Shown in pieces: positions 11,201 to 44,200 of a DNA stretch of 53,187 bases. The DNA is from Girardia tigrina (taxonomy: Eukaryota), in NCBI GenBank assembly GCA_001938485.1, contig MQRK01216559.1, positions 1-53,187 on the forward strand, read 5' to 3'. Every line of letters begins with the position of its first letter. Positions within the stretch are counted from its first letter, which is position 1. Under the pieces are notes generated by a model that was not told where the DNA came from, searched no databases, and was given only the letters and a program-made list of their open reading frames with translations. The position numbers and the translations under genes were made by a program.

Positions 11201-14200
11201 ATTGTTTTGTTGACAAATACAATAATTTTTAGAATTCTTTAGAAAATTTATTTTAATGTTTTTTTGATATTCATCATCCATTTCAGTCCTTGATAAGTTA
11301 GCAAAGATCTCAGACTCCAATAAAGATCTTTTGAAGCAATCTCTGGAATTTAAGGAAAAAATCAAACAATTACTCGAACTAGCAACTCAGTTCTGGAATA
11401 ATGTGAAGAATATTGAAGACAAGTTCAAACAAATTTCTTCCGATTTAAACGAAAGTGTTATTGAAGATATTAATACAAAATATGTGATTGAAAAGAAAGA
11501 CAGAGTAAAATTCAAGTTATTTTCTTTTTCAAACTGAAAAGTTTTGTTTAGATTGAGAATTTGAAAAAGGATATCGATTTATATCAAAATAAATTGGAAA
11601 CCATGAAGAAAAATGGTCTAGAACTGATTGCAAAGGTTAACAATCCAAATGAGACTCCCGATATCGAACAAATCGAAGAAGAATTGACAAGAATTTTCGA
11701 AAGCGTTCAAAACTCGTGTGATCAAAAGATGAAACATATTGATAAACAACAATCATTAATTGTGAAACTTGAAGTAAATTATCTTTCTCTGTAATTTATG
11801 TTCATTAGAAATATTAGGAAATGAAAGTGGAATTAGACGAGTGGTTTAAAGAACAAAATAATCGTTTATTTATCCTCGGACCACTTCCAAATGAAACAAG
11901 ACCTGTATTAAATCAAATTGAAAAGACAAAAGAATTAAAATATGAAATCGAACCAAAACATCGTGACATTGAATTGATAAATCAGCTCGGTTACCAACTG
12001 ACGAAAGGCTCACATCCAAATATTAAAAATCAAGTCAACAATACCTTAATTCGGATTAACGATTCCTGGGCTCGATTGTTAGATGGACTCGGTCAACGAC
12101 AGCATCAGTTGCAGTGCATTCTTCTCAGTCTCGGTGAATTCCACAGAGCCGTTGATGAATTCATGGAATGGATTATTAACACCGAAAGAAATCTTTCCAA
12201 TATCAAAATAGAACATGGAGATATTACTTTTCTTGAGATGGGTCTTGCTCAACATAAAGTAAATAATTTATATAAATTAAATACTCATTGCTGTTTTGTA
12301 TAAATATATAATTCAGATCATATAATAAATATATAATTCAGATTATAAGCAAACATTTTGATCGAAATCAGATTTTATTAATTTCCCTAAATCGGGAGAT
12401 TAATAAAATTAAAAATAAAGTTGGTTTATTTCTAATGTTTGGAAATAATAGTTTTTTTGGAATTATTTTTATCATATCGGTTTCGGATTACTTTACTTTC
12501 AATTAACTCTAGAACAATTTTCAATTATTTCTTCATTTTCAATATGTTTTATTATATTTACATCTAAATAGTTATACGATTTTTATCAAATATTTTCTTT
12601 AATTCTCTTCAATTTAGATGATTCGAGCTGATATGAACATTTCACAAGCTTCTATCAGTAAGATCGAACGAAAAGCAGCTGAGATTATCAAAGAGGATGT
12701 TTCCAGTCTTGGTCATGAAGCAACACAGCGTTTAGAACAATTAAATAAGTCTTGGGAAATGTTGAAAGAACATATTCGTACAAAACATTTCGAACTGGAG
12801 GACGCATTGAAAGAAGCATTAATATTCTATGGAGATCAACAGGAGATATTGAAACACATTGATGAATTAGGAAGTAAATTGGATGTATTCAAATTTTCCG
12901 GTGGACTTCCTGATTCTGCTAAAGAACAATTAAAACGATTTATGGACATTTATCGAACATTTCCAAAACTGAGCACTAGAGTTAGTATTATGTTTTATTA
13001 TCTTAGATTTGATTTTTGAAATTTATGTATTTCATTATAATTGTTATTTGTATATAGATTGATAGACTTTTGGAAGATGCTAAGGAAATTGAGAAAAAGT
13101 CTTCTGATTCAATTAGAGAAATGATAGAAAATGACACAGATAATCTTATTAAAAAATGGGCAGCGATTAAAACATTAGCAGAGTCGAGAAAAGTACGATT
13201 AGAGAAGGCAATCGAAACTGTTGAATCATTCCATTTGGATATGGGAAAGTTTATTAGCTGGTTAACTCTAACAGAAAAAAATCTGAATCAACAAAGACCA
13301 GTGTCAAGAATTGTAGCAACAATATTAGATCAAATTGAAGCCCACAGAGCATTGAAAAGAGATATTATATCACACAGAGAAGAGGTAATAATTAAATTTA
13401 TAGTATTATAATCTCTATTTTCTCTAAGACTGTGCACTCATTTTTTCTTTTCGCATGTATAATTTTTAATACATTTATATTGTTAAATTGTGGTCAAAAA
13501 TAACGTAGTGTCGCAATCACGGTAAATGGAGGTATGTATAACTAGACAAAACATTATTTGGAGTAAATATAAATTTTAGGTGTAAAACCTGCATATTTTT
13601 CCATTCTTTATATTAGCTTACTTTCTAGGTATGTATCCATGGAATTTAGAAACCTATTTTTGAAGGTTTTTTACTCAATCAATTTTCTTCAAACTTTGAA
13701 CACTTGCTCATTTTCGATAACAATAAATGATTATGCGAAAATTTGATCAAAAAAATTTTTTAAGATCCCAAAATGTGAAAAAAGCGGAAAATTCGGAGTT
13801 CCAGAACAATATTAATTGAAAAAGATCTATTTATAAATTATAAGTAGTTTATATTAATTTTATAGTGTTTTTTTAATTATTTTTTTAATTAAAACTTTGT
13901 TGGCAAAATAGAGTTCTGTTTGCATAAAGAATGGATATAAAAAATTTAATTTTTTGATTTAATAGTTGTAAATCAATATTACAACTTTATTATGTCATAT
14001 CATATACTGAGCAAATAATTAATTCATCATAAATGCATTTTCATTTTTGTCGTTTTAAAATATAAATTTAATTCCCAAATAAAATATGTGAATGATATTC
14101 TTGGTAACATTAATAAAATTATCACATTTCTCCAAAAAAAATCATTAGAAAAATTTATGACGTTAATTTAGATTTATTATGTATATTTAAAACAAATAAT

Positions 14201-17200
14201 TTTTTCATCACAAATATTAATATAGTTTTTGAATTCATTTGTTATACAAATTAGTCTTCCTCTGGAGAATTATACACATTCTATTTCCAATTTCAGAATA
14301 TAATTCTGCTAATCACTCCCTGTTGTTAATATTTATGAATTTGATAACATCATTGATTTTTTCGGATAATTCTCTGACATTTTTAAATTTTGGCCCGTCA
14401 TACACACGATCAGATATCATTTTCCAAACGTCTTCGACTATATTTAAGTTGGGATTCTTAGGTAGCCACTCCAATACCTTTAATTTTGTTTCACGTATGA
14501 CATTTTTCACTTCCGACATTTTTGCATGGGGCTATTATCCTCTTGGAAAAATATATTTTCGTCAAAATTTAATTTAATTATGGGTACTTTCTGTTAATAA
14601 GTTTATATATTCATCACCATTAAACTTTCCCTTGAATAGTCTGTATAATAATAGACCAGTGAATCTACGCTTTTTCGATATACATTTTTCAATTAGCTGA
14701 ATATTTCAGATTTTATCATAAGCAGGATATATAAAAAGAAAGTGTACCAGCTGAACTTTCAAATAATATATAACATGACACAAAAAATAAAATTTTGTTT
14801 GCTTCATTCTAATTTAAAATTACATTGCAAAATTTTCTTATCAACCTAATAATATAGATAATCAAATTCTAAGATTGACAAAAATATACATCTTAATGCT
14901 TCAAAGGTCATGTTTAAAGGGTTCAATTAAAATATTCTAATTAACGAATATTAGTTTAATATTAAAATGTTTTTATTAACTAATATTTATTTGAATATGT
15001 TTTTATATATAACAAAGTAGGAAATTTCAAGATATTAGATTTACCAAATTTTCAATTAAATTAATATTGCCTATATTTAATAATAATTTATATTCATCTT
15101 AGATGTTGAATCTCGACAAAGTAGCGACACATCTCAAATATATCAGCCAGAAACATGACATTGTCCTTATAAGAAACTTAATGAGTAGTATACATCATCG
15201 ATGGGAAAAAGTAGTTTCAAGAAGTTCCGAAAGAACAAGAAATTTGGATTACGGGTACAAAGAAGCCAAACGATTTGAAGACATGAATAAAGCTTTACTG
15301 GAAGATATAGCTAAAAATTTGGCCCAATTAGAACAAGATACATCAATAAGCCAGACGCCTTCAAAGATTCGAGAACAGATTGATAAGCATAAGGAATTTC
15401 ATTCCAATCTCGGTGTTCATAATTTGGCTTACGATGCTACCAGAAGACTTGGGTATCAATTGAGAGATAAAGCACCTATTCAGGATACCAAAAAAATAGA
15501 CGAGATAATTCATAATCTTCAGATGAAGTGGCAACACTTATGCAATAAATCAATTGAAAGGTTCTTTCATTCTTTTTTAATGAATTTATAAAAATCTGTT
15601 CACGAAATTCAGAGAGAAAGCTCTAAACGATGCATTACTTTTGTCGGGCAACTACAAAGATGCAATGGACAATTTGTTAGTCTGGTTAAGAACAATTGAA
15701 CCTAAATTAAGTGATACATCAACTGGGGTTTGTGGAGATGTCAATATTGTACAAGTAATTTAGTTCAAGTAAAAATTACTTATTTTACTAATGTCTTTTA
15801 GAATTTGCTCGCTGAACTCGCTACTATTGAAAAACAACTAAAAGATCGAGAAAATATGTTTGAGAGAATTAACACAGATGCTATGGCATTGATGATTAAA
15901 TCAGAAGAAGATTCCTCGATTATTGATGATCAATTAGCTGAATTAAAATCGTCATGGAGCAATATTAATTCGTTGGCTGAAAATCGAAGAAAACGTCTTG
16001 AAGACGCCAAAAATCAAGTAAATTTACTAATTTCCTAAGTATCAAAATACATTTTTACACATTCTCTTTTAGGCCCTTGATTTTGAATCTCAGTGGACTT
16101 CATTGAAAGACTTTTTTGCAAAGTCTGAACATGAACTTAGAAAATTTACAACTAATTCTGAAGAAGATAAAGAAGAAATTATCTTGGGTTTAATCGCAAA
16201 TCATAATAAATTCCATAAGAATCTTCAAGATAACGAAATGAAAGTAAACAATTTTCAGCAATTTGGTCATGAAATTCTTGCCAGAGCACATCCTGATGCA
16301 GAAGGTCCCATCAAGCATTATATCAATATCATCAAATCACAGTGGACTGACGTAAGAAAAATATTTTTATAATTAATTGTTTAGAGATTTCTTCTCTAGT
16401 TGCTTGGATGGTCGGAACAACGTGGTCAAAATTTGAAAGACTATTTAGATAAATTGAACGAAAGAAAATTACTCCTTGATGATCTTCTATTATGGCTGGC
16501 TACAGCTGAAGGTACTCTATCAGCATCTGAAAGTCGAGATTTGCCTTATTCATTGACCGAGGCAAATTTCCAAAATGAAGAACACGAACGATTTATTACG
16601 GATATGACCCAAAGACAAAAAGATCACGACGAAATTGTAACTCATTCGAAAAAGAAAAGTGCACTTCCAGTTCCATTTGATAAAAACAGGTATGATAATC
16701 TCTTTTTGCTTGTGTCAATCGATAAAATAACAATTTTTGTTCTTATAGACGTAAGGAAATAGAATTGAATCAAACATCGAGTAAGATCCAAGACGCAATT
16801 TTTATCAATCCAAAAGTAAATCAACTTCATTCGAAATGGAAACAAGTTTGGTTCATGATTTTGAATCGAAGAAAACGACTTCTAGACCATATTGAATATT
16901 TGAAAGAAGTAGAAAACATGAAGAATTTCAATTTCGATGATTGGCGACGAAGATATATGTCATGGATGAATCACAGTAAAGCTCGGGTGACAGATTTTTT
17001 CCGACGACAAGATACAGATCATGATGGTCGAGTTACTAGGAAAGAATTTATTGATGGAATCATCGAATCAAGTATGTTATCCTTCTTTCTGTATGAGAAT
17101 CTTTTAATCTTCTATGAAGCAAAAAAAGAAAATTTATTAAAAATACATCTCAGATTTAAACAAATTTTTTTTGAAAAAATTTTAAAAAGCATTATTAAAT

Positions 17201-20200
17201 CCCTGCCGAAAGTCATATTCTTATTTCGTAGTCATTGTACCATATAGGTTCTCTGCTTTCTCTCCCTTCAAACGTATCTAGTAACCATCTGTATTGTCAA
17301 TAATCTCCTATATACTCGACTCTAGATGCACAACATTGCTCCAGTCTTCTCTGGTGTCTGAATCATAATTAAAATCATTCTCTGAAGCAACCTGATCATT
17401 TGATCGTTTTCTGATATCCTGGACATGTCTTGGGATTCCGTCTACTTAATATTTGTTTTCACTAATTTTTGCTGTAATTGTAATATGATTCAGTTCACTT
17501 GTACATCGAACCTGTTCAATCGGCTTAACCAACACTATCTCCTACTGCAAACATTTTTATAATTGTGTTTAGTCGGCTTCTCATTTAGTTTTTCACTCAT
17601 TTCTTTCCACTGGTAATTAAATAACATTTCACTTAGATATTTAATTCCGTCTTCTTTTTTTAGGGCCGATATTATATAAATAAACAGCTTCAGCAATAGA
17701 AATATTCGAACTCTCGGCACTTCTTTTTACTGTACGATGACAGCACTCAACAATTCCGTTCGTACTTCGCCTATGCGCTCCACTTTTTACTCTATTTACT
17801 GCATGTGTTTGAATTAAAAAAAAAAAAAAAAAATATAGCTTCTCCATTGTCAACAAGACTTTTTATGGGTTCTTTACGCTCAATTTAGTTCGTCAACAAT
17901 CATTGTAGCATCGTCCGCTCTTCCCGTCCTAGCTTTTCGCCAAATTGCAAATCGACTTTACCCACAATCAATATTATTGATAAATGCGTGCATGAATTAT
18001 TTAATATTAATCGTTCGGTGATACTTAATCACTATGGCACTTAAACACTAGACACTTAATCACTAGAAATTTAATTAATTGGAAAAAAATTGATTAAAAT
18101 AATTTTTTATTGATTATTATTATTATGAAGAACAGAGTTTATTTAAACATACATATCATAAACCCGCTATGGGCACTAGCCCTGTCATACGTGTTATCAA
18201 GGCTGCGGACCAGCAGCGTCCCACCCATGTCCAAAGGGCACCTGCTCTATCTATCTCCACAGGTTGTGCAAAATATATTGCTTTGACGTTTTCCCACGTC
18301 GTTTTCTCCCACCACCTACCCAAATAAATTTCTTATTTTTTATTAAAAAAATTTTTTTAACTAAAAATCGAATTTTAATTAATTAGTGGATAAGTATGCA
18401 ACAATACGCAAATATAATAACCTTTCACTTGAAGAATAACAACAAATGGCATCAATGACTCTGTTTTAAAATTCGATATTTTTTGGTAAGTTGTTTTCTG
18501 CATTTTTAAATCATTCCTTAGTTCAATTTAAAAATTCCACAATGACGGATGATGGCACTGAAAGAGAGATTGAAGACCATAATACCATCGTTCAATACTA
18601 TTTGTGGTTCTTGCAATTCCCTCAGAGGCAGATTCAAAATGATCCCATGTTTCGATGGGAAATAAGACTGGATTATAATATAAACTTCAATTCTGCTCTG
18701 TAATAAACTTAAACAATAAACTTCTGTGCTCTCCAAGGAACCTCGACTGCCGTTCAAGCAAAGATGCCAAGGAATGACGCCATTCGCAAGGTTATTCAGC
18801 GTCTTAGAAAACACAATCAAGTAGCTCCTCCACAACCGGTCGATCGAGCTTCAATTATTATTCCGGATGCATACAGAATTTACGAAGTCGCACCAGATCA
18901 GATGGAAGAATTTATTTTATAGGATTCCGGAGAACAAGATGAAGATCTCATTTTTCTCTTTGGCCGACAGTCGAATGGTGATTTGAGTAACCAAATGGAC
19001 AGACTGTATGTGAATGGAACATTTAGCCTAGCTTCTGCTCTTTTTGCACAAATATATGTAATCATGGCAAACAGAAGAGGATTTGTGCTACCGGTTCTAT
19101 ATGCTCTGCTACCGAACAAAGAAAGAAGAACATACCGACGATTGTTTGAACCCATTAAAGAATTGTGGCCATATCTCAACCCGTCGTCAATTTCTATCGA
19201 CTTTGAACAGGCCGCAATTGGAGCTATTAGGATTGTGTTTCCGAATTTTGCAATCCATGGATGCCTCTTTCATTTGAAGAAGAACATGCGGAAGAAGCTA
19301 GCAGACGAAGGTCTGCTTAGCCGATATAACATCGATCCTGAATTCACTTTGTCTACCAGAATGATAGTCGCTCTCTCCTTTATTCCAATCGAAGACCTTG
19401 ATGGTGCTTTGGAGGCACTGGAAAACGAAATTATGGAGGACCAATAATAGATTGGTTTGAGCATGTCTACATTGGACGTCTTTTTAGCTGTATTGACTAC
19501 ACTTTGGAATGTGAAATCACTGTCAAATCTTGACTACGCCTCTTTTTTAAGTGATCAGGCAAGCTGTGAATGAATAACATTGAACAAAATGCATAGATCT
19601 GGTCTTGATCTCTGACCACAGTCTTGATCAATTGTTTAATTTCAGCCGCCGAAACATCCAATCGATCACCCGTTAGAATTTTATTTTTACCAAGCAGTAA
19701 CTGCGCATCAAATTTACTCAAACCGGACACTGTACAATTAACTTTTAACTTGCTTGGCGTTTCTTTGATAATGGGACGATAATCCCTTCCATGAGTCATA
19801 TGTCGGCTAATCTAACATCATAACGAAGATTGAGATCTCTTTTTCACTAAAACATAAACCTCAATGACACATTCAAATTTGTCAATCCAACGCTCGACAT
19901 CCTCTCCCCCATTAAAGTTCTTGAGATTCTTGATTGCTTTCCTTTCCGCGTTAGTTTGTTACAAATTGATAATAAGATTTTTAAAAGTGATATATTTATA
20001 TCTACAATATTTGTTTTATTTAAAAAATATATTACCAAATATTTAATTACATTTATTTATAAATCTAACTGGTTTTATTCATACTTTAGGAATAAAAGGT
20101 TTGTAATAAAGTCACTTTGTTTAGAAATTAATAAGTGTACAGGAGAGATCTGTGAATCTGATAACACTCTTCTAGACATCGGTTTCTTAATTAATATATC

Positions 20201-27189: not shown

Positions 27190-30100
27190 GAATTGAGAGC
27201 TTCTACAGACCTCGATGCTGGAACTGAACAAAGTCAATCTATTGCACCCAGCGACACTGAAGAATCACAAATCGACGATGACAGCTCAGTCTGCTCAGTA
27301 AAATCAGAGATTTCCCTCCTCAAAACACCCAAGAGTAAGAGACTTAGAGGACCAAAGTGCGCTCAATGACGGGCCGGCTCCATAATCCTAAAAAATCAGG
27401 AGATTATGGATAAGCCACCAGAACCCGACCCAAGATATTGGTTCGATGACCTCGACATCCATGCCTACCTAGAGGTGATCGAAAAACCAGATGACATCCT
27501 GCTCGCACCGACCTGGGCAATCACCAAAACTTTCGAAGGGGAGGAAGACCTTCCATCTATTCTTCCCGGTTACAACCTGGAGAAAATCCAATATTGTATT
27601 GTAGCAGTTAACTATGGCAGCACACATTGGTTCACCATGTGCTGCACTAAAGGTCATGTTTTCATATTCAACTCCCTGATGGATTGCCCGAATGAAAGAC
27701 AATTAACAACACTCATCACTCCATTCATCAACGCTCTCAATAAAACTGCAACGGACAAAAGCAATTGACTCTTTAACATTAAACTCCCGATCAAGTACAG
27801 CACATGTCAACAACAAAAAAGCAATTATGACTGTGGGCCATTTACATGCGGGTTCATAGAGAACTTTATCAAAAGAAGGCAAAACCCTCTGTTTGACATT
27901 CCAATTAGTGAGATCAGAATAAAAGCACATTCTCTGCGCCCACAAAGATCTAGCCAAGCAAAACCGCAAAATGTAGGTGGAGGAAAAATGACAAAAACCG
28001 TTAAAAAACCACGAAAACCACGAAAAAAGAAGTACTCAAAAAAGACTGGCCAAAAGACACAGAAAGAACACAATGAGAAGAGACAAATCAAAGCCGACCT
28101 GTACAGATTTCAGGCTGATCGAATGTCACGACTAATCCAAAACTTACAAATCCCTGATGACATTCTGATACTAGACAACAGAGTGACCCACAAGATTAGC
28201 AAGGGTAATGAGGAATTCATTAAGACACACATTTCTTATTCCTCATTCATTGGAAAAAGACTTGTCCTTTGCCCACTCTGCATCTCCGACATGCAATTGA
28301 TTCTAGTATCCTTCGATCAAGAAAACAAAAAAACATCCATCATGAACAGACTTTCAATATCAGACGAACAATGGACGGTCATCAAGACCCTGAACACGAA
28401 CCTCTATTCGTTCTACAGAAATGTCAGCAATATTTGGGAACCAGAAGAAGTCAGTACGACAAAATCCGAGCAATTCGCTGGAAATGGATACTGGATTGCC
28501 AATTATATTTACCAAATTGTTCACAATGAAGATATCAATCAAGACAATCGACAAACTGTTTGGGAATTGACAAAAAAGAAGAAATTTAACAAAATTTCTG
28601 CCCACCCAACAGGGGATCGAAAAAAGACGGAACAAAATCAGACATACAAGGACAGACTGTCATCTGCAGAAGAGTTCCTTAAAACCGTCGCTAATGAACA
28701 TATCGAACAATTTTCTGATCAATTACAACAATACATTTTACAAAAACAGAAAAAGAGCCGCAAAAAACCATACCAAGGAAAGATCGGTAAGGATAGAGGT
28801 AAAAATGACAAATACCTACACATCAAATATAGAATTGAGCCAAAGAAAGTGATAGAGATGATCCTATCGGACTCGAAAGTAACCACAAGCCCACCTATTG
28901 AAAAGATAAAAGAATACGGTCAGACAAAAACACCAGACCCACCAAAGACCGACTGGACCAAATTTCCCCTCATCGAACAAGGTCCAGAATTTTTCCAACC
29001 GGGCACTTTTGCTCAACGATCAAGAAGATTAGCATGGCCCCTGCGCAAGGATGACACGCAAAATCGTGAAGCGTTCCATATTTTTTAGATTATTTATTAT
29101 CTTTGATATTTTTAGTTTTTTTAAAAATAATTTATTAATTTCTTTTATTTTCCTTCTTTTATCGTTAATAAGCAAAACATAATTCTTTACTTGATTAAGT
29201 AGCATTTGTGATAAATTATTTTTGTGATAGTTATGCAAAAGTCAATGGCACTGCGTATTCCCAATCGGTCACCCATATAACAGAATTCAAAAAGATCACC
29301 AAGGCAGAAATTCTATCAGTCCTGCTTAAAATGAAAAAATCCAGCCCGGGAAAATCAAACATCACATACAAAGACATTGAATACTGTGATCCCAGCGGCT
29401 GCATCCTTGAAAAACTCTTTGAGAAAATCATGGATAAAAATGAAATACCAAAGAACTGGGGCGAATTCATAACAATACTTATCCCCAAACCAGGAAAAGA
29501 CGATAAATATGATCAAATGTCGTCCTGGAGACCAATTGCACTACTAGAATGCATATACAAAGTCTTTGCATCCTGTCTAACAGCCCAACTTGAAAAATGG
29601 CTGACAGTAAATGACCTGATTTTCCCACTGCAAAAAGGAACAGGAACATCAGATGGATGTGCTGAACACAACAATGTGTTGAGAATTATATTAGAAGAAC
29701 TGGAAGAAGTCCACGTCGCCTTCCTCGATCTCACTGACACATTTAGTAGAATGCCCATAGATCATGTAATTGAAATATTACGCAGAAAAGGAATGGTCTC
29801 GAAATCGTGTGACTTGATAAGTCAATCTACACTGAAAAGACATCTGAATACTCATGCAATGGCCGATCTATCCCAGCAATACCGATCAACAGAGGAGTTC
29901 GACAGGGTTGCCCATTATCGATGCTCCTATTCAACGTTGACATAGACCCAATCTTGATGGAAATTCACAACTCACCAGACTCCTGAATAAAAATCTCTGA
30001 TCACAAAATATCCTGCCTGGCGTATGCCGATGATATTGCCTTGATATCAAACACAAATTAAGGTCTCCAGGAAATGGTCAACAATGCCTTCAATTGGGCC

Positions 30101-31830
30101 TCCTGACATCGATGACCTTCAATTCGAGCAAATACGGTTATCTGTCAACAACGAAGGGAAACGAGAAGATATACATCAACGGAGAAGAAGTCGCAATAGT
30201 TGACGACGAAAAGGGATACAGATACCTGGGAGTAGACTTTACAAGATAAACAAAAAGCTCTCCCACCGAACTTTTCGAAGGTATCATAAGGGATATGAAA
30301 AAATCGCCAACTCCTCTCTTGATTCTTGGCAGAAGATTGACGCATACAAAACATTCATCCACTCGCGCCTAATCTTCTCTTTTCGAAATTATAACATTCC
30401 GAACAGAGAACTGTCAAGCTATGGTAGTGCTGATATTAAAAACAGGACATTCGCAATCGGTCTGGACAGAGAAATTAGAAAGTTGATAAAACCCGTGTGT
30501 GGTCTACAACCAACAGCAACAAACGACTATCTTTACGCAGGGAAAGAGTATGGGGGACTTGGACTAGTCGAAACCCGAGATGAATATGCCATACAATCAA
30601 TCATACAGGCATTCAAGAACTTGACCTGCGAAGACATGAGCGTTGCCGAATTAACACTAATCAATTTGAACAACACTCTGAAAAAACAAAGTAAAAACAA
30701 AAGGAGAAAGTACAATCCAGATAGAACAATCAGCGAAATGATGGATTGGCTCAACGAAGGAGATTGAGAGAACGGAATCCAATCTTGGTGGACCAAAATC
30801 AGAAATAATATCAGATATCTGGACAAGATTGGATTACAAACTCGTTTCCTACATGATCAAGTAAAGGGGATATGCTTACAGATCAGGTCGTCTAGCGAAA
30901 CTCTGACTCTATCTGCCGCCAACAAAAAAACCCTATCTTTCCAATTCCACAGACTATACCACCACCAAAAGTTTGTGGATTGGTCAAATCAAAAATGCGC
31001 GGGTAGATCAGCTGACGCCTTGAGTAAAAACAAAACCTCCAGTCAGATACTTTACGATAGAAGCCTAACAGCAACAGAATGGCAATTCATCCATCAAGCA
31101 AGAACAGGAAACCTCCCTGTAAACTACAGGCCGAAGAGACCAAAAGAAAAACACTCTGCCGTGCTTGTCGAAATTATGTGGAAACACAAATGCATGTCCT
31201 TTGCCGCTGCAATTACAATATGACACTTGTCACTGCACGACACAATGCTGTGGTTGACCTGGTTGTTGAGGCTTTAGACTTTGAAATGCCGTATTACGAA
31301 ATCAAAACTGACGAACAAAGTGATTTCTCTACAACGAGCAGAAGAATAGACCTACAAGTCAAAAACAGCGGTGGAAAAACCCTGTGGCTGATAGACATCA
31401 AAACACCGTACGACGAGACGGAGAACCTCAAGTCCGCCAGAGAGCTGAATGAGACAAAATATGAGTCACTTGAAGCCGAGGCAAAAGCCAAATTTCCAGC
31501 CTGGAGCATACATCTCGGAACGATAGTCGTTGGTTGTCTTGGCTCCTGGACAAAGGAGAATGATGATGTCCTCAAAAATCTCAACTTGTCGGACACCGCA
31601 TTAACCAACTTGCGACGACGATGTGTGATATCGAATATCAAGCATAGCGCGTCGACTTGGGCGAAACACAACATTTACTGTTTCAACCCATGTGCCAGCT
31701 CCACGGATAAACCAGTCGACTCAATCCTGGAGCGGATTCAAACGTTGGACGCTTAACGACGCTTTAGTCATTAGCTGTCCTGTCTCTGTGGTCACACGTT
31801 TAAGTGGACAAGCGACAGTTGCTAAATTTA
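27190..31830 (+). mobile_element. Decayed, 5'-truncated RLE-type non-LTR retrotransposon (NeSL/R5-like) with Ulp1/C48 protease, RT, CCHC and restriction-like endonuclease
   Basis: Protease: WFDDLDIHAYL..VNYGSTHWF..VFIFNSL..QQQKSNYDCGPF. RT: SSPG, WRPIALLECIYK, QKG..GCAEHN, AFLDL, GVRQGCPLSMLLFN, LAYADD, YRYLGV. C-terminus: CRACRNYVETQMHVLCRC, ARHN, RRIDL..LIDIK..KY, IVVGCLGSW; stop at 31756. Multiple stops and frameshifts. Confidence 0.9.
27406..27900 (+). pseudogene. Ulp1/SENP-like (peptidase C48) domain of the retrotransposon ORF
   Basis: His of HW at 27625-27627, FNSL (Asn at the usual D-S position) and Q-x5-DCG with Cys at 27832-27834. All in one frame with a single in-frame TGA at 27766-27768. 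Confidence 0.8.
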
Positions 31831-38279: not shown

Positions 38280-41200
38280 ATGAATTGGGAACCGAATGGT
38301 AATGGAATAGGACAAATTTTACAATTACTAAATGAATCACAATCAACGGATACCAATGTTCAACGATCAGTTCAACAAGTAATAATTTTCTAATTTTACT
38401 GGACGCTATTTTAACTCGTCTCTTACTCACCCCTAAAAAATTAATCAGAAACTCGAAGAACTCAACAAATATCCGGATTTTAATCAATATTTAATTTTTA
38501 TTCTCTCCCAAATGACAGATCAAAGTAATAACCGATTAAAATTCGATAAAATTTATAAATTAAAATCAATAATAATTTCTCATTGACCCAATTTAATAGG
38601 TGACGCGACGAGAAGTCTCAGCGGTCTGATCTTGAAGAACAATCTCAAGAACTCGTACGATAAGTTCAATCCGAGCGTCATCGCCTACATCAAGAATCAG
38701 TGTCTCGTGTGCGTCAGCGACGACTCACCGATGGTGCGCGCCACCGTCGGCATCCTCATCACCACCATCGTCAGCAACGGCAAGCTAGAGACGTGGCCCG
38801 AGCTCATCCCGCGACTCATCATGTGTCTCAAGTCCAATAGCGACAATCTATGCGAGGGCGCTCTCGGCGTGCTCCAGAAGATCTGCGAGGACTCCAGTGA
38901 CCAGCTGGATAATCCGGCACTCGGGCTGCCCGTCAAGGACCTGCTGCCCGAGTTCTTTCGGTTTTTCTCCCATAAAAATCCGAAATTTCGGTTTGTTTTT
39001 TTATAATGATTATTTACAAGCCAGTGATTTGTTAACATGAAAGATAAACTATTGATTAAATTGGAATTATTTTCTGAAATTTTATAAGGAATAAATATTC
39101 ATAAATTAATTAAAAAATATTCATAAATTAATTAAAAAATATTCACAAATTAATTAAAAAATATTCATAAATTAATTTTAAAAAATTCATAAATTAATTA
39201 AAAAATATTCATAAATTAATTAAAAAATATTCACAAATTAATTAAAAAATATTCATAAATTAATTTTAAAAAATTCATAAATTAATTAAAAAATATTCAC
39301 AAATTAATTAAAAAATATTCATAAATTAATTAAAAAATAATCATAAATTAATTAAAAAATATTCATAAATTAATTAAAAAAATTCATAAATTAATTAAAA
39401 AATATTCATAAATTATTAAATAATATCAAATTAATTAATAAAAAAATCACAAATTAATAAAAAAAAATATCCGTAAATTAACAAATATTCATCAATAATT
39501 TATTGATAATGATTTCAAGTTTTAAATTACGAAATAATAAATTGTGTTTTAGATTGCATTTAATTGATCTTTAAACAACCCTTGTTAAATCTAAAGAACT
39601 CTCTAATATAATACAATACTTCATAAATGAATCATTCAGATCGACAGCCTTAGCGAGTGTCAATCAGTTCATAAATGAGAGATCAGAAACGCTCATGAAT
39701 CACATCGATGATTTCATCCAGAATTTGTTCTATTTGGCTGAAGACGAGGACCCTGAGGTACGAAAATTGGTCTGTTCAGCTCTTGTTCTATTGGTGGAGG
39801 TCCGAATCGATCGACTGATTCCTCAAATCAATAATGTGGTCGAGTTCATGCTGATGAGAACTCAAGACACTGATGAGAACATTGCACTGGAAGCTTGTGA
39901 GTTCTGGCTTTCGCTGTCCGAGCAGCCTATGTGCCAGAATGTGCTCCATCCATTCGTGAATCGATTGGTACCTGTCCTTGTTAGGGGCATGAAATATTCC
40001 GAGAATGACTTACTATTTCTACAAGTTGTTTTATCGAGTTATATTGATAATAAATGATTAATCAAAATATTGGTTGCGGTGTGTAGAACGATCTCGAGGA
40101 AGACAGTCACATTCCCGACAAAGAAAGTGATATTAGACCACGATTTCACAAAGCAAGGACTCGCACTGCGTCAAGTGTTGAGGTAATTTATTTACATTAT
40201 TATAACTAAGATATTTAATTATGACTAGTAAAAGAAACATTAATCAATATTTATTTATTTAATCATGAGAATTTTTATTCTTTGTCAAATGTATTGTTTT
40301 TATAAAAGTACATTTTTATGTCCCTATTTCTTCTACTGTTCTCCAAATATCACAATCTCGTGACTCGATAAAATCAATACCAACCTGAATTATAATTAAA
40401 TTCCCGCTTATATGACTTGTGTTTTGCCCAATTGAGTATTCATATATTTCTCTGTATATATCGATTGGAATATATCGCGATGATTTCCCTCTTTTAGAAT
40501 AAATATGGCCGACGTAATCGATAAATGTTAGAGAAGGCGTGATTGATTTAAGATCACTTCTAATGCTTATCCTGTTTGCTAAAATTTACATTTCCATAAG
40601 TGCTTATACAATCTCTGTATCCATGCACAAAACACGAGGGGTATTGCACTCATTTACGAATTAAAACAATAAGAAATTATAACAAATGAATACTAAAAAT
40701 TATTGTTGGAATATAATTAATATATTTCATGTTTTTATCATTGCAGGAGAGTGAAGATGAAGGAAAAGACGATGATTATTTGTCGAATTGGACTTTAAGA
40801 AAGTGTTCTGCAGCCGCTCTTGATGTTTTAGCTAATGTTTTTCACGATGATCTTTTGCATGTCTTGCTTCCAATTATCAGGGATACTTTAGTTTCTTCAG
40901 ATTGGTTGGTAAAAGAATCTGCGATTCTTGTTCTAGGAGCAATCGCTGAAGGTAGAAGAAATATTTACTCGCAATATTTACATTTTTTTCATAGGATGCA
41001 TGCATAGCATGGTTCAATATCTTCCAGAACTGTGTCCTTTCCTTATCAATTCGTTGAGCAATCCAAAGCCATTGGTTAGAAGTATCACCTGTTGGGCACT
41101 GAGTCGCTATGTGCATTGGATTGTCGCTCAACCGCATGAACAATATTTGAAACCTCTAATGTCAGAATTATTAAAACGTATTCTCGATCCCAATAAACGT

Positions 41201-44200
41201 GTCCAAGAAGCCGCTTGTTCAGCATTTGCCACTCTCGAAGAAGAAGCCTGCACCGAACTCGTTCCATATTTACCTGATATTCTCCAAACATTAGTTACCG
41301 CTTTTGGCAAATATCAGCACAAAAATCTATTGATACTCTACGATGCTATCGGTACACTGGCAGACTCTGTCGGCAATCACTTGAATAAAACAGTACGATT
41401 TCGCTTTTCAAATAAATTGATTTGTTATCATTCCAATGCAGGAATACGTGGAAATGTTGATGCCGCCATTATTTCACAAATGGAACCAGTTAAAGGACGA
41501 CGATAAAGATCTTTTCCCTCTTCTCGAGTGCCTGTCGAGTGTAGCCACAGCGCTGGGAGATGGTTTCATTCCTTATTCAGAACATGTTTTTCGACGTTGT
41601 ATTAAGCTTGTCGATATGACTCTCAAACTGACCTCAGTAGATATTGAATTAAACCAATTATCTTTTCTTTAACATTTGCTTTTCTCTCTTTCCAGAGTAC
41701 CTATCAGAATCCAGAATATATAGAGACTCCGGACAAAGATTTTATGGTTGTTGCTCTGGATTTGTTGAGCGGTATTACAGAGGGTCTTGGCAGAAACATT
41801 GAACCGCTTATCAGAAGCAGCAATATTATTCAATTGCTTCATCAATGTGCACAGGTTAGTGACTCGATATTTTATTTTATAATGCTTTTTCTTCCGTGAA
41901 TCACATGCTTCATTTACACATACGCATTTATGTTCCAAAAAGCTCTTTTCATTCTAAAATATATTGTGAACAATACATTTTCCTAAAAACGATCATGATT
42001 ATCTGTGACTCGGTTATTTATTGAGATAAATCTTAAGACTTTTACAATGTATGTTTAATGTTATTCATCAAACTACCACCACTTTCAATACAATCTCTGT
42101 CTTTACTAGGGCTGACAATCCCGGGATTTGTATAATAGTTCAAACTATCGGACACCTACTAATCAAACTGCTCTTTTTTGTTAAGACGACTAACATTTAC
42201 GAAACACAATGTAAACATATTTCTCAATTGCTGGTATCATAACATAATTTACAAAGATTTAAAATGATAACATAACAAACAAAGTTTCTCCAATGTTTTA
42301 TCATTTAGACTAGAGCACAGCTTTGTACGAGAATATCTCACAGAGGAAAAGACACGTTCGGCTTCAATGAAAGTTGGGGGAACAGTGAGAAGATATTTGT
42401 AGACCCAGTCCATAAAATATCCTCTTTCCCCAACATGTTCTAAAATGATAAGTTCCTTATCATCAAATCAGTTTCTACAATCGCCGTTTTCGGTTTCGTT
42501 GACACCAAGATAGCTTCTTTCAATCGAAATTTGATTAATTTCAGTCTCGATGATGTCTTTGCTGATGATATTTTCCTTCACAATTGATCGTTTAACAACT
42601 CGAGCCATGGGATCACAAAGATAGCGAACGATGTGGGTTGCGTCTGACATTCTTTCAGTTATCATAAAGATATTTATTATTCTTTACAGATATCATTTTA
42701 AAATTGATCACTTTTTAAAATCTTATTTTTGACTTTTTTTGGAAAATAATTCCAATATTAATCAATTATAAATTATAACTGATCATTGGCGGATTTTGTT
42801 ACCAAAAAGTAAAAATTTAAGTTATCAATTTTTATCTCTATGAAAACATTTTTCTGAAATCCGGGATTGTCAGCCCTAGTTGTGACTGAATGCCTCTTAT
42901 TTCAAATATTTTTCATTTCCCCTTGAACACACACAATCACAGATTCATTAGTTATTTTTATCGACTGCGATTTAATAAACCGCCAAAAATCAACTGAAAA
43001 CTATTGCTTTTAAGCCATTTAGTCTTATTGATTTACTAGAACTTAACGTGTCAATTGGAGCATGTGAATCTTGATAATCAAGAAGAGATAATTTTATTGA
43101 AAATAACTGATCTAATAAATAACCCAATCAATATCCAGGATGCTCAACCGGAAGTCAGACAAAGCAGTTTCGCACTGCTCGGGGATCTAACGAAAGCCTG
43201 TTTCCCTTTACTCCAGCCATACACTCGGGAATTCATGGAAATTATCGCTCCCAATCTCAACAGCCAGCACATCTCTGTCTCCAATAACGCAATTTGGGTT
43301 GTCGGAGAAATGTGTATGCAACTCGGTTCGGAAATGAAAATTTTTGCTCCGATGTTCGTTGAGAATCTCGTTACCATCATAAACACTCATGTCACTCCAA
43401 AAACCCTCCACGAGAACACTGCGATCACGATCGGTCGACTCGGTCTAGTTTGTCCCGAAGAAATTGCTCAGCACTTGCAATATTTCATTCGCAACTGGTT
43501 AGTGTTATTGTTCTATTTTATTCTTGTCACATGATCGATATTTCTCTTTATTTTGCACTCATCAATGACTTCTTTTTGTTATTTCTAGTAAATATTAATT
43601 GATTTTTTGCTGTAATTAATATTAATTCGATTAATATTACTTCATTTCAAATGTTATTAATAGAACTGCGAATTGTCAGGTCAATAAAATTGACATTTAA
43701 AACTTGCAGTGCAAAAACTATTTATCGAATTTATATTTTAGGTGTATTTCTTTGAGAAATATCAGAGACAACGACGAGAAAGACTCCGCTTTCCGAGGAA
43801 TATGCAATATGATCACTCTCAATCCTAACGGTGTCCTTAATGATTTCCTATTTTTCTGTGATGCAGTGGCATCCTGGAACAACCCGCGGCCAGATTTGAA
43901 GGAGATGTTTCACAAGGTACACCTTTCAATCGATTAAAACATTTACTATTGAATTTTATTTTTTAAATATAATCTAAACCAGGGGTAGTTACCCTTTTCA
44001 TACCTATCGCCCACTTGTTCTACAGTGTTGATGATTGATAAAGTAGGAAGGTTTAAACTATTTATCAAGTAGATTTGAGGACAATTACTTACTGTGTTAT
44101 AAATGAGTACCTTATAAACGCAATATCGCATCTACATGGAAATATTTTGCCCTTAACGATACGAATGGTTCGTTTATATAAACTGCACAAAGCTAATTCC

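Follow-up and report, generated by a model that had tools for sequence, protein, structure and literature searches.

A decayed retrotransposon of the restriction-like endonuclease (RLE) type, without long terminal repeats (non-LTR), is located at 27205-31799 (+ strand) of the Girardia tigrina contig MQRK01216559.1, whose entire 53 kb were analyzed here as the window (assembly of 1.43 Gb, AT-rich). Its two open reading frames, ORF1 and ORF2, are separated by a single in-frame TGA, and ORF2 starts with a protease domain of the C48/Ulp1 type (D1), which is followed by a linker with Gly-Gly (GG), a catalytically dead domain of the same fold (D2) and the reverse transcriptase (RT). The reading that we favor, and that we hold to be reasonably probable, is an expression similar to that of gag-pro-pol combined with self-cleavage. 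In this model ORF1 and ORF2 would be translated as one frame across the conserved TGA, where the majority of ribosomes would stop and thus make ORF1p the main product, while a minority would read through and produce ORF1-D1-GG-D2-RT-endonuclease. D1 would then cut its own chain after Gly-Gly and free D2-RT-endonuclease. We also regard it as moderately probable that a whole clade of RLE non-LTR elements has independently reached the gag-pro-pol plan by UGA readthrough and self-release through a captured Ulp1 protease; readthrough, with the UGA-CGG, UGA-CUA and CAR-YYA signals of viruses, would then set the ratio of ORF1 to the enzyme, the protease would detach itself at a Gly-Gly similar to the ubiquitin tail and the dead twin would be the N-terminal module of the RT-endonuclease. 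If this is true, it gives a concrete function to the NeSL-type protease and represents proteolytic maturation in a non-LTR element as well as a second, convergent path to the retroviral expression plan. Proteins of non-LTR elements of the apurinic/apyrimidinic endonuclease (APE) type have been described as unprocessed (PMC3894237).

The stop codon between ORF1 and ORF2

In the window copy the 3' remnant of ORF1 (27205..27366, +) begins at the 5' truncation of this copy at about 27205 and ends at the predicted readthrough site, the TGA with the following CGG (27367..27372, +), in frame with ORF2. Sister copies extend ORF1 upstream in the same frame by at least 490 codons, and the end of ORF1 shows a ratio of non-synonymous to synonymous divergence (dN/dS) of 0.07 in the pair L031-L044. 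All 24 family copies covering the site possess the TGA at 27367-27369, with CGG being next in 23 of them. A preliminary description of this DNA had counted two in-frame TGA codons. Both are indeed present, but they are unlike in kind, as the second one (27766-27768) is a private stop inside D1 found in one of 28 copies, the window copy itself, with AGA in 24 others; by counting the conserved ORF1 stop along with it, the readthrough junction had been overlooked.

For a survey of this junction we compiled 81 loci, 80 of them stretches of the own genome with D1/D2 or Pfam matches and one a metagenome locus (L051). From the 59 rows having the D1 start and an in-frame stop upstream, 46 show TGA-C, the codon after TGA being CGG in 21, CTA in 9, CAA in 9 and CTG, CTT, CAT or CTC in the other 7. 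The C after the TGA is therefore retained although the codon differs between families. Junctions of divergent families read TGA-CGG, TGA-CTAG or TGA-CAATTA, mostly followed by a covarying hairpin, and with lineages defined by 60% D1 identity, TGA-C occurs in one or more copies of 11 of 13. Among 20 further loci, seven had no C48 match and eight covered the D1 start completely; TGA-C is present in seven of these eight, which mostly come from families already surveyed. In the best copies the frames open around the single TGA comprise 1225 and 1345, 1107 and 1424, or at least 593 and 1393 codons before and after it, respectively. In the distant single-protease element L051, represented by one DNA sequence, TGA-CTAG takes the alignment position of the conserved tunnel Trp, and in the single-protease clade 11 of 12 predicted proteins begin within the protease domain. 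A changed genetic code was considered and ruled out, with one TGA per element vs 6-26 TGG; a selenocysteine at the TGA, which was considered as well, would fall on a non-catalytic position. A single in-frame TGA, here as TGA-TGG, also occurs upstream of the RT in a protease-free RLE relative (L052:495).

Firth et al. 2011 distinguish viral readthrough signals of Type II (UGA-CGG, UGA-CUA) and Type I (CAR-YYA), and where CAR-YYA is absent a 3' RNA structure is expected (PMC3159437). Judged by their nucleotides, the junctions described above correspond to these Type I and Type II signals between two coding frames. Because of the conserved in-frame TGA-C contexts and the usually covarying hairpin we consider programmed readthrough of the TGA to be very likely.

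Alternatively, ORF2 could be translated by termination-reinitiation or internal initiation, with the hairpin serving this purpose as in SART1, where a stop-start is combined with a downstream structure (PMC3894237), and self-cleavage would still be possible. Such a start would fit an ATG that 23 of 24 window-family copies have 13 codons past the stop and the MPA start shared by five of six three-repeat relatives. On the other hand half of the TGA-C rows (23 of 46) lack an ATG upstream of D1, and reinitiation needs neither a shared frame nor TGA instead of TAA or TAG nor a C at +4 under varying codons. Furthermore, the relative P0091 has its upstream region joined to D1 with no stop between them. 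Taken together this makes the alternative improbable.

Several observations weigh against readthrough, among them the downstream ATG just mentioned. Thirteen of the 59 rows are not TGA-C, and while the upstream frame of 10 of these comprises at most 23 open codons and seems to be decayed (one of them is a D2 row included in error), the exceptions L140, L160 and L170 do not have such a decayed look. The counts are also not independent, since the rows are related, the loci were chosen by long frames or C48 matches and several of the database relatives hardly differ from families of the own genome. Read contigs from four runs of guessed type, which covered parts of the region, gave 40 listed differences, none of them in the stop codon, and no joint skipping the stop codon was among those listed; these contigs are silent on expression.

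RNA structure after the stop codon

The predicted readthrough stimulator of the window copy is a hairpin (27376..27416, +) that begins 6 nt past the stop codon and has an inner 8-bp stem at 27380-27409. For the 90 nt past the stop the folding z score has a mean of -2.2 in 25 loci vs -0.2 in 74 control windows. In the CGG group (16 sequences) 96% of the cells are paired, compared to 30-50% when the structure is slid along the sequences, and double changes are found in 7 of 11 pairs, while the CTA/CAA/CTT group shows covariation in 8 of 9 predicted pairs. Synonymous divergence is reduced past the stop, for example to 0.08 vs 0.47-0.64. The figures come from few independent lineages and the structure was derived from the same sequences, so they cannot be taken as probabilities. 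For most junctions a 3' RNA structure is predicted that shows covariation and coincides with reduced synonymous change. Three CAATTA loci have z near 0 and no hairpin, as would be expected for them according to the excerpt of PMC3159437, but six non-CAATTA loci are without a clear hairpin as well (z 0.9 to -1.1), which counts against the favored reading.

An intact and a dead C48 domain

Both protease-like segments are located where the preliminary description had placed them, in one reading frame. D1 (27439..27936, +), disrupted here by the private stop, matches the Pfam family Peptidase_C48 with E 6.2e-10 on the window frame (stops as X) and, in a sister copy, with E 2.6e-11, its score being 44.2 bits vs a cut-off of 20.7. 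The window copy has Trp at 27439, His at 27625, Asn at 27670, Gln at 27814 and Cys at 27832, and in the family, where residues were tallied per copy and not from a consensus, His is present in 25/26, Asn in 25/26, Gln in 29/29 and Cys in 26/26 copies. The window family has Asn as the third residue of the triad, where most relatives show Asp. By its Pfam match above the cut-off and the succession of His-Trp, Asp/Asn, Gln and Cys, D1 belongs to the peptidase family C48 of clan CE. The 'MQLI' is a private change of the window copy, as 27 of 29 copies show QW. The closest solved structures to D1 are Ulp1 and the SENPs, matched over the entire catalytic domain (E 3.8e-17), and adenain is found with E 7.9e-6. 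The D1 profile retains the W-x-x-D motif, and the 'NSFF' and 'RRW' segments of Ulp1, which have a role in SUMO contact, are unmatched in it.

For D2 (28087..28581, +) a Pfam scan of the domain alone in the window copy gave no match, and PF02902 is matched by 23 of 30 D2 sequences at E<=0.1. When 27 active D1 domains, excluding those of the window family and P0104, were combined into a profile, it matched positions 5-150 of 160 in D2 with 21.7 bits, the maximum of 300 shuffles being 10.2. Comparison of the D2 and D1 profiles by hhalign resulted in a probability of 99.4 and E 6e-22, and all 30 matches at E<=10 in a PDB search with the D2 profile are CE-clan proteases, with SENP1 on top (E 7.8e-6). 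The AlphaFold2 (AF2) model of D2 has a predicted local distance difference test score (pLDDT) of 90.3 and a Foldseek match to Ulp1 (E 5.7e-7, TM 0.72); superposition with NEDD8 protease and SENPs gave Z 14-17 and a root-mean-square deviation (rmsd) of 2.6-3.2 over 152-163 aligned residues (one of them with Z 16.9, rmsd 3.0 and 163 residues). The likeness of the two domains, formerly judged by eye, is thereby borne out, including the C48 fold of the second segment that had been set beforehand as a refutation test, and by these profiles and models D2 is a homologue of C48/clan CE with a Ulp1 fold.

Gln occupies the His position of D2 (28294) and Asn the Cys position (28483), in 29/29 and 26/26 family copies, respectively. 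The loss of both residues noticed before is therefore family-wide and not specific to one copy, and decay of the window copy as its cause is ruled out by these counts and by the rows of the relatives. In an alignment of 57 D2 rows (37 loci of the own genome and 20 database proteins) His and Cys occur together once, His only in 10 and Cys only in 3, and Ser takes the place of Cys in 39. Trp is found at the first tunnel position in none of the 57 rows and the Gln motif is absent, too. P0008 is the sole D2-like repeat keeping His and Cys. In four of five unsaturated pairs the dN/dS of D2 is 0.09, 0.19, 0.10 and 0.12, similar to D1 in the four pairs compared with it (0.06, 0.12, 0.10 and 0.06), so the check across families that had been proposed points to purifying selection; these values were obtained by Nei-Gojobori with approximate domain borders, and dS of D2 was saturated in 8 of 13 pairs. 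The fifth unsaturated pair, with a dN/dS of 0.59 at a dS of 0.13, counts against it. As the same fold appears in all tests, the residues are lost clade-wide and dN/dS is low, D2 is an old and maintained pseudo-protease. An RLE retrotransposon with an intact C48 domain and a dead paralogue, as first described, thus stands after examination of fold, residues and family. Being conserved and even re-duplicated in six relatives, this Ulp1-fold pseudo-enzyme is a good structural target.

The Gly-Gly linker and predicted self-cleavage

Behind D1 the window copy carries Gly-Gly-Gly (27976..27984, +), the predicted self-cleavage site, followed by a Lys/Arg-rich linker (27985..28086, +), whose length is a peculiarity of this lineage and of the sister families closest to it. 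From 55 tandem linkers 47 possess GG and 6 GxG, and two are out of frame. The three glycines are kept in 28/30, 30/30 and 26/27 copies of the window family with a variable residue (V/I/R) in front of them, and G189 and G190 are conserved to at least 90% (alignment A3). The distance from the catalytic Cys to GG is 42-51 aa (SD 2.2) and that from GG to D2 5-42 aa (SD 11.7), and the near-constant former distance suggests a geometric tie to D1. A two-chain model of D1 and the linker reached a score of 0.73, compared to 0.01 for the best of three controls, with peptides being outside the calibration of the tool; the mark set for this score was reached by 51/78 solved vs 2/108 mismatched pairs. In the model G189-G191 touch C141, H72, W10 and W73, the runs share at least 86% of the contacts and the partner has a pLDDT of at least 59. 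The docking supports a placement of GG at the active site of D1, and it is not proof of binding. Viral proteases related to Ulp1 cleave their polyproteins behind such a Gly-Gly (PMC4584293, PMC1198262). Based on the model and the linker sequences, we think it likely that D1 cleaves at Gly-Gly, and because of the fixed Cys-to-GG distance the cleavage would probably occur in cis.

The Gly-Gly might instead be a flexible hinge or an autoinhibitory pseudo-substrate in the site of D1, which would leave ORF2p whole and make D2 a structural or regulatory partner. The GxG variants would agree with this, as would the fact that docking into an active site does not demonstrate turnover. However, a hinge needs neither exact GG nor a mostly hydrophobic P4 residue nor a fixed distance to the Cys, when the rest of the linker varies between 5 and 42 aa; moreover, the catalytic residues of D1 are all retained and a two-domain model has no confident D1-D2 packing (predicted TM score 0.49). 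We therefore consider a mere hinge or pseudo-substrate quite unlikely.

Some points also weigh against cleavage itself. In addition to the six GxG linkers, the docking might come from model memory, as SENP-preSUMO complexes have been solved, its calibration did not include peptides nor its controls a GG mutant, the modelled D1 copy has a private Asp-to-Val change adjoining the Cys, and the single-chain AF2 model leaves the linker unplaced (pLDDT <50 at 180-213). Single-protease relatives have an intact protease and no GG at the corresponding place behind it (0/10), which means that the protease has or had other substrates.

A weaker rival of self-cleavage is an anti-silencing function, in which D1 would mainly free host proteins involved in silencing from SUMO, ubiquitin or NEDD8, while D2 would bind the modifier or the substrate. 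P4 is L/V/I/F in 33 of the 47 GG linkers, a hydrophobic residue like that in the tails of ubiquitin and NEDD8, so D1 might accept these modifiers. The nearest solved relatives of D1, as mentioned above, are Ulp1 and SENPs, and the missing GG in single-protease relatives leaves room for a host-modifier role. The Drosophila SUMO pathway represses interrupted units of ribosomal DNA (rDNA), and rDNA-inserted transposons are treated in the same work (PMC7676866). Against it, D2 is unlikely to bind a Gly-Gly tail in the canonical manner without the tunnel Trp and the Gln motif, the SUMO-contacting segments of Ulp1 are unmatched in D1, the SUMO-like Gln at P4 is found in 0/47 linkers and the GG at a fixed distance is left unexplained. 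We judge this function unlikely, even if D1 could act on host modifiers as a second role beside self-cleavage. Of the functions suggested in the preliminary description, the processing module fits better, given the fixed-distance Gly-Gly, whereas a SUMO-directed or anti-silencing one is without direct support.

In seven ORF2s scanned with the D2 region no GG was seen behind D2, which would consequently remain joined to the RT-endonuclease. That D2 serves the mature enzyme as an N-terminal scaffold without catalytic function, placed where one-ORF relatives have zinc fingers, is an evenly balanced proposal. The conserved Gly-Gly at a fixed Cys distance makes the function of the protease simple to test, and as R2-group enzymes are under development for gene insertion it would be useful to know the start of the mature RT-endonuclease.

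Two further observations concern this region. Among the subfamilies L036, L044 and L031 there is a sharp contrast between D1 and D2, with a dS of 1.49 in D1 vs 0.13 in D2 for L044-L036, which suggests recombination between subfamilies near the GG linker. In 5 of 17 one-ORF single-protease relatives (P0107, P0176, P0180, P0194 and P0212) we found (L/M/I)RGG upstream of the protease, a possible second kind of cleavage site.

Relatives and distribution

A word-based protein search with D1 and D2 alone gave no match, and relatives were reached via the RT. The closest of them possess one intact and one dead repeat, or one intact and two dead repeats in six proteins (P0016, P0020, P0021, P0024, P0093 and P0098). 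The five of these with the MPA start may use a start codon of their own. A similar dead-repeat fragment is present in the Girardia tigrina genome (L216). In a FastTree tree of 101 RT rows, midpoint-rooted and built without named NeSL, R5, LIN or Utopia references, all 26 multi-repeat rows fall into one clade of 39 (support 97), whose other inspected members are mostly N-terminally cut predictions. Its sister is a group of 12 single-protease elements (support 100), and one-ORF zinc-finger single-protease elements are placed elsewhere in the tree. Seven own or metagenome loci including L051 are outside the tree after the RT filter. Among 80 metagenome loci listed a C48 domain was found in one, L051. 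No match was obtained when the own genome was queried with D1 from a single-protease element, which is not proof of absence.

P0091 is a single frame of 2421 aa, in which a long N-terminal region is joined to D1-GG-D2-RT, and by this predicted architecture it is a natural equivalent of the readthrough product. No similarity was found between its fused N-terminus and ORF1 of the window family. In a sister lineage ORF1 carries a cold-shock domain (CSD) at L153:4589-6367(-), L154:5057-6742(-), L160:1964-3712(+) and L163:1-3570(+), with Pfam E values from 9e-7 to 3e-4 and above the cut-off in L160 only; in ORF1 of the window family Pfam detected no CSD.

State of the window copy and other features

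Besides its 5' truncation, the window copy has a frameshifted RT and is interrupted by a secondary insertion of 291 bp (28992..29282, +) that contains the 3' part of U6 small nuclear RNA (snRNA; 29022-29085) and is foreign to this retrotransposon family. The reading frame said before to end near 29075 actually runs into this insertion, and in other copies it continues into the RT. The RT domain (29283..30303, +; Pfam RVT_1, E 5.7e-30) shows YADD at 30023-30034. It is followed by a region (31115..31756, +) whose translation contains what we take to be a CCHC knuckle and restriction-like endonuclease motifs, for which a Pfam scan gave no match, and ORF2 ends with a TAA at 31754-31756. In the 3' untranslated region (31757..31799, +) the final ~45 bases of sister copies, including AATAAA, are absent. 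With the RT being followed by these putative C-terminal motifs the element belongs to the RLE (R2) group, and the Ulp1-like protease upstream of the RT is the feature of the NeSL clade. No target-site duplication was found when the window copy was inspected for it, and the 3' flanks of 9 sister copies reaching the 3' end are all unlike, without a visible sequence-specific target. The family is abundant, with 439 DNA candidates, from which 40 were scored (identity 78-96%), and 1567 protein candidates for D2.

The insertion itself is a multicopy repeat (40 scored matches; other copies in L224-L228), and its U6 portion comprises the 3'-terminal 64 nt of the snRNA (Rfam E 7.5e-16). The same U6-bearing sequence is found in a sister family with a protease, ~145 nt past its ORF2 stop (L203:7684-7949), and L227 has a 5' flank similar to that of the sequence in L203. 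For the sister family this may mean either an insertion preference for U6 genes or a U6 piece belonging to its own 3' end. Elsewhere the window contains pieces of a Tc5/pogo-type transposase (2-1274, -) and of a Mutator-like element (MULE) transposase (18923-19444, +), spectrin-repeat exons (11818-17244, +) and importin-beta/transportin-like exons (38587-43531, +).

Comparison with known systems

NeSL-1 was reportedly described by Malik and Eickbush in 2000. The Ulp1-like domain in NeSL elements and Utopia-1_TSP has already been published (PMC4640811). A search of titles and beginnings of abstracts revealed no function for NeSL-type Ulp1-like domains, and in the literature covered, which did not include the primary NeSL-1 and R5 papers or Repbase, we found no report that non-LTR elements process themselves or possess a GG site or a dead tandem repeat; priority for these findings is thus uncertain. 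The window element resembles NeSL from nematodes and Utopia-1_TSP as an RLE non-LTR element with a Ulp1-like cysteine protease upstream of the RT. According to the excerpt of PMC4640811 these have one protease domain, and Utopia has one ORF, N-terminal zinc fingers and U2 targeting. In contrast, the element described here has two in-frame ORFs, an intact and a dead repeat (two dead ones in six relatives) and a GG linker, and in the RT tree its group is apart from the one-ORF single-protease elements. The planarian R5 has a layout of two ORFs. R5 and the planarian LIN (for LIN PMC4640811) are NeSL-related RLE elements that could be likened by description only, and entries of either may already show an in-frame stop or a tandem domain. 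For Group 3 of the APE-type non-LTR elements of Paramecium read-through has been suggested (PMC5405496); these elements differ from ours as they belong to a ciliate, are of the APE type and have no protease, and the excerpt contains no motif or hairpin analysis.

Adenain, pS273R of African swine fever virus (ASFV) and I7L of vaccinia virus are Ulp1-related and mature the proteins of their own virus after Gly-Gly or Ala-Gly (PMC4584293, PMC1198262). All three are stand-alone enzymes, whereas D1 is itself part of the chain that it is predicted to cut and nearer to Ulp1/SENP in sequence.

The clade of the window element shares the motifs UGA-CGG, UGA-CUA and CAR-YYA with viral readthrough (PMC3159437), and an in-frame stop between structural and enzyme ORFs together with a 3' stimulatory structure is also found in gammaretroviral gag-pol (PMC5009743). 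It differs from gag-pro-pol in that it is a non-LTR element, its protease is of the cysteine (C48) and not of the aspartic type, its stop is UGA where gag-pro-pol has UAG, and a single cut is predicted. In retroviruses the protease is the first domain past the stop, and the same is true for the window element, which by this analogy would work like gag-pro-pol without being a member of that group.

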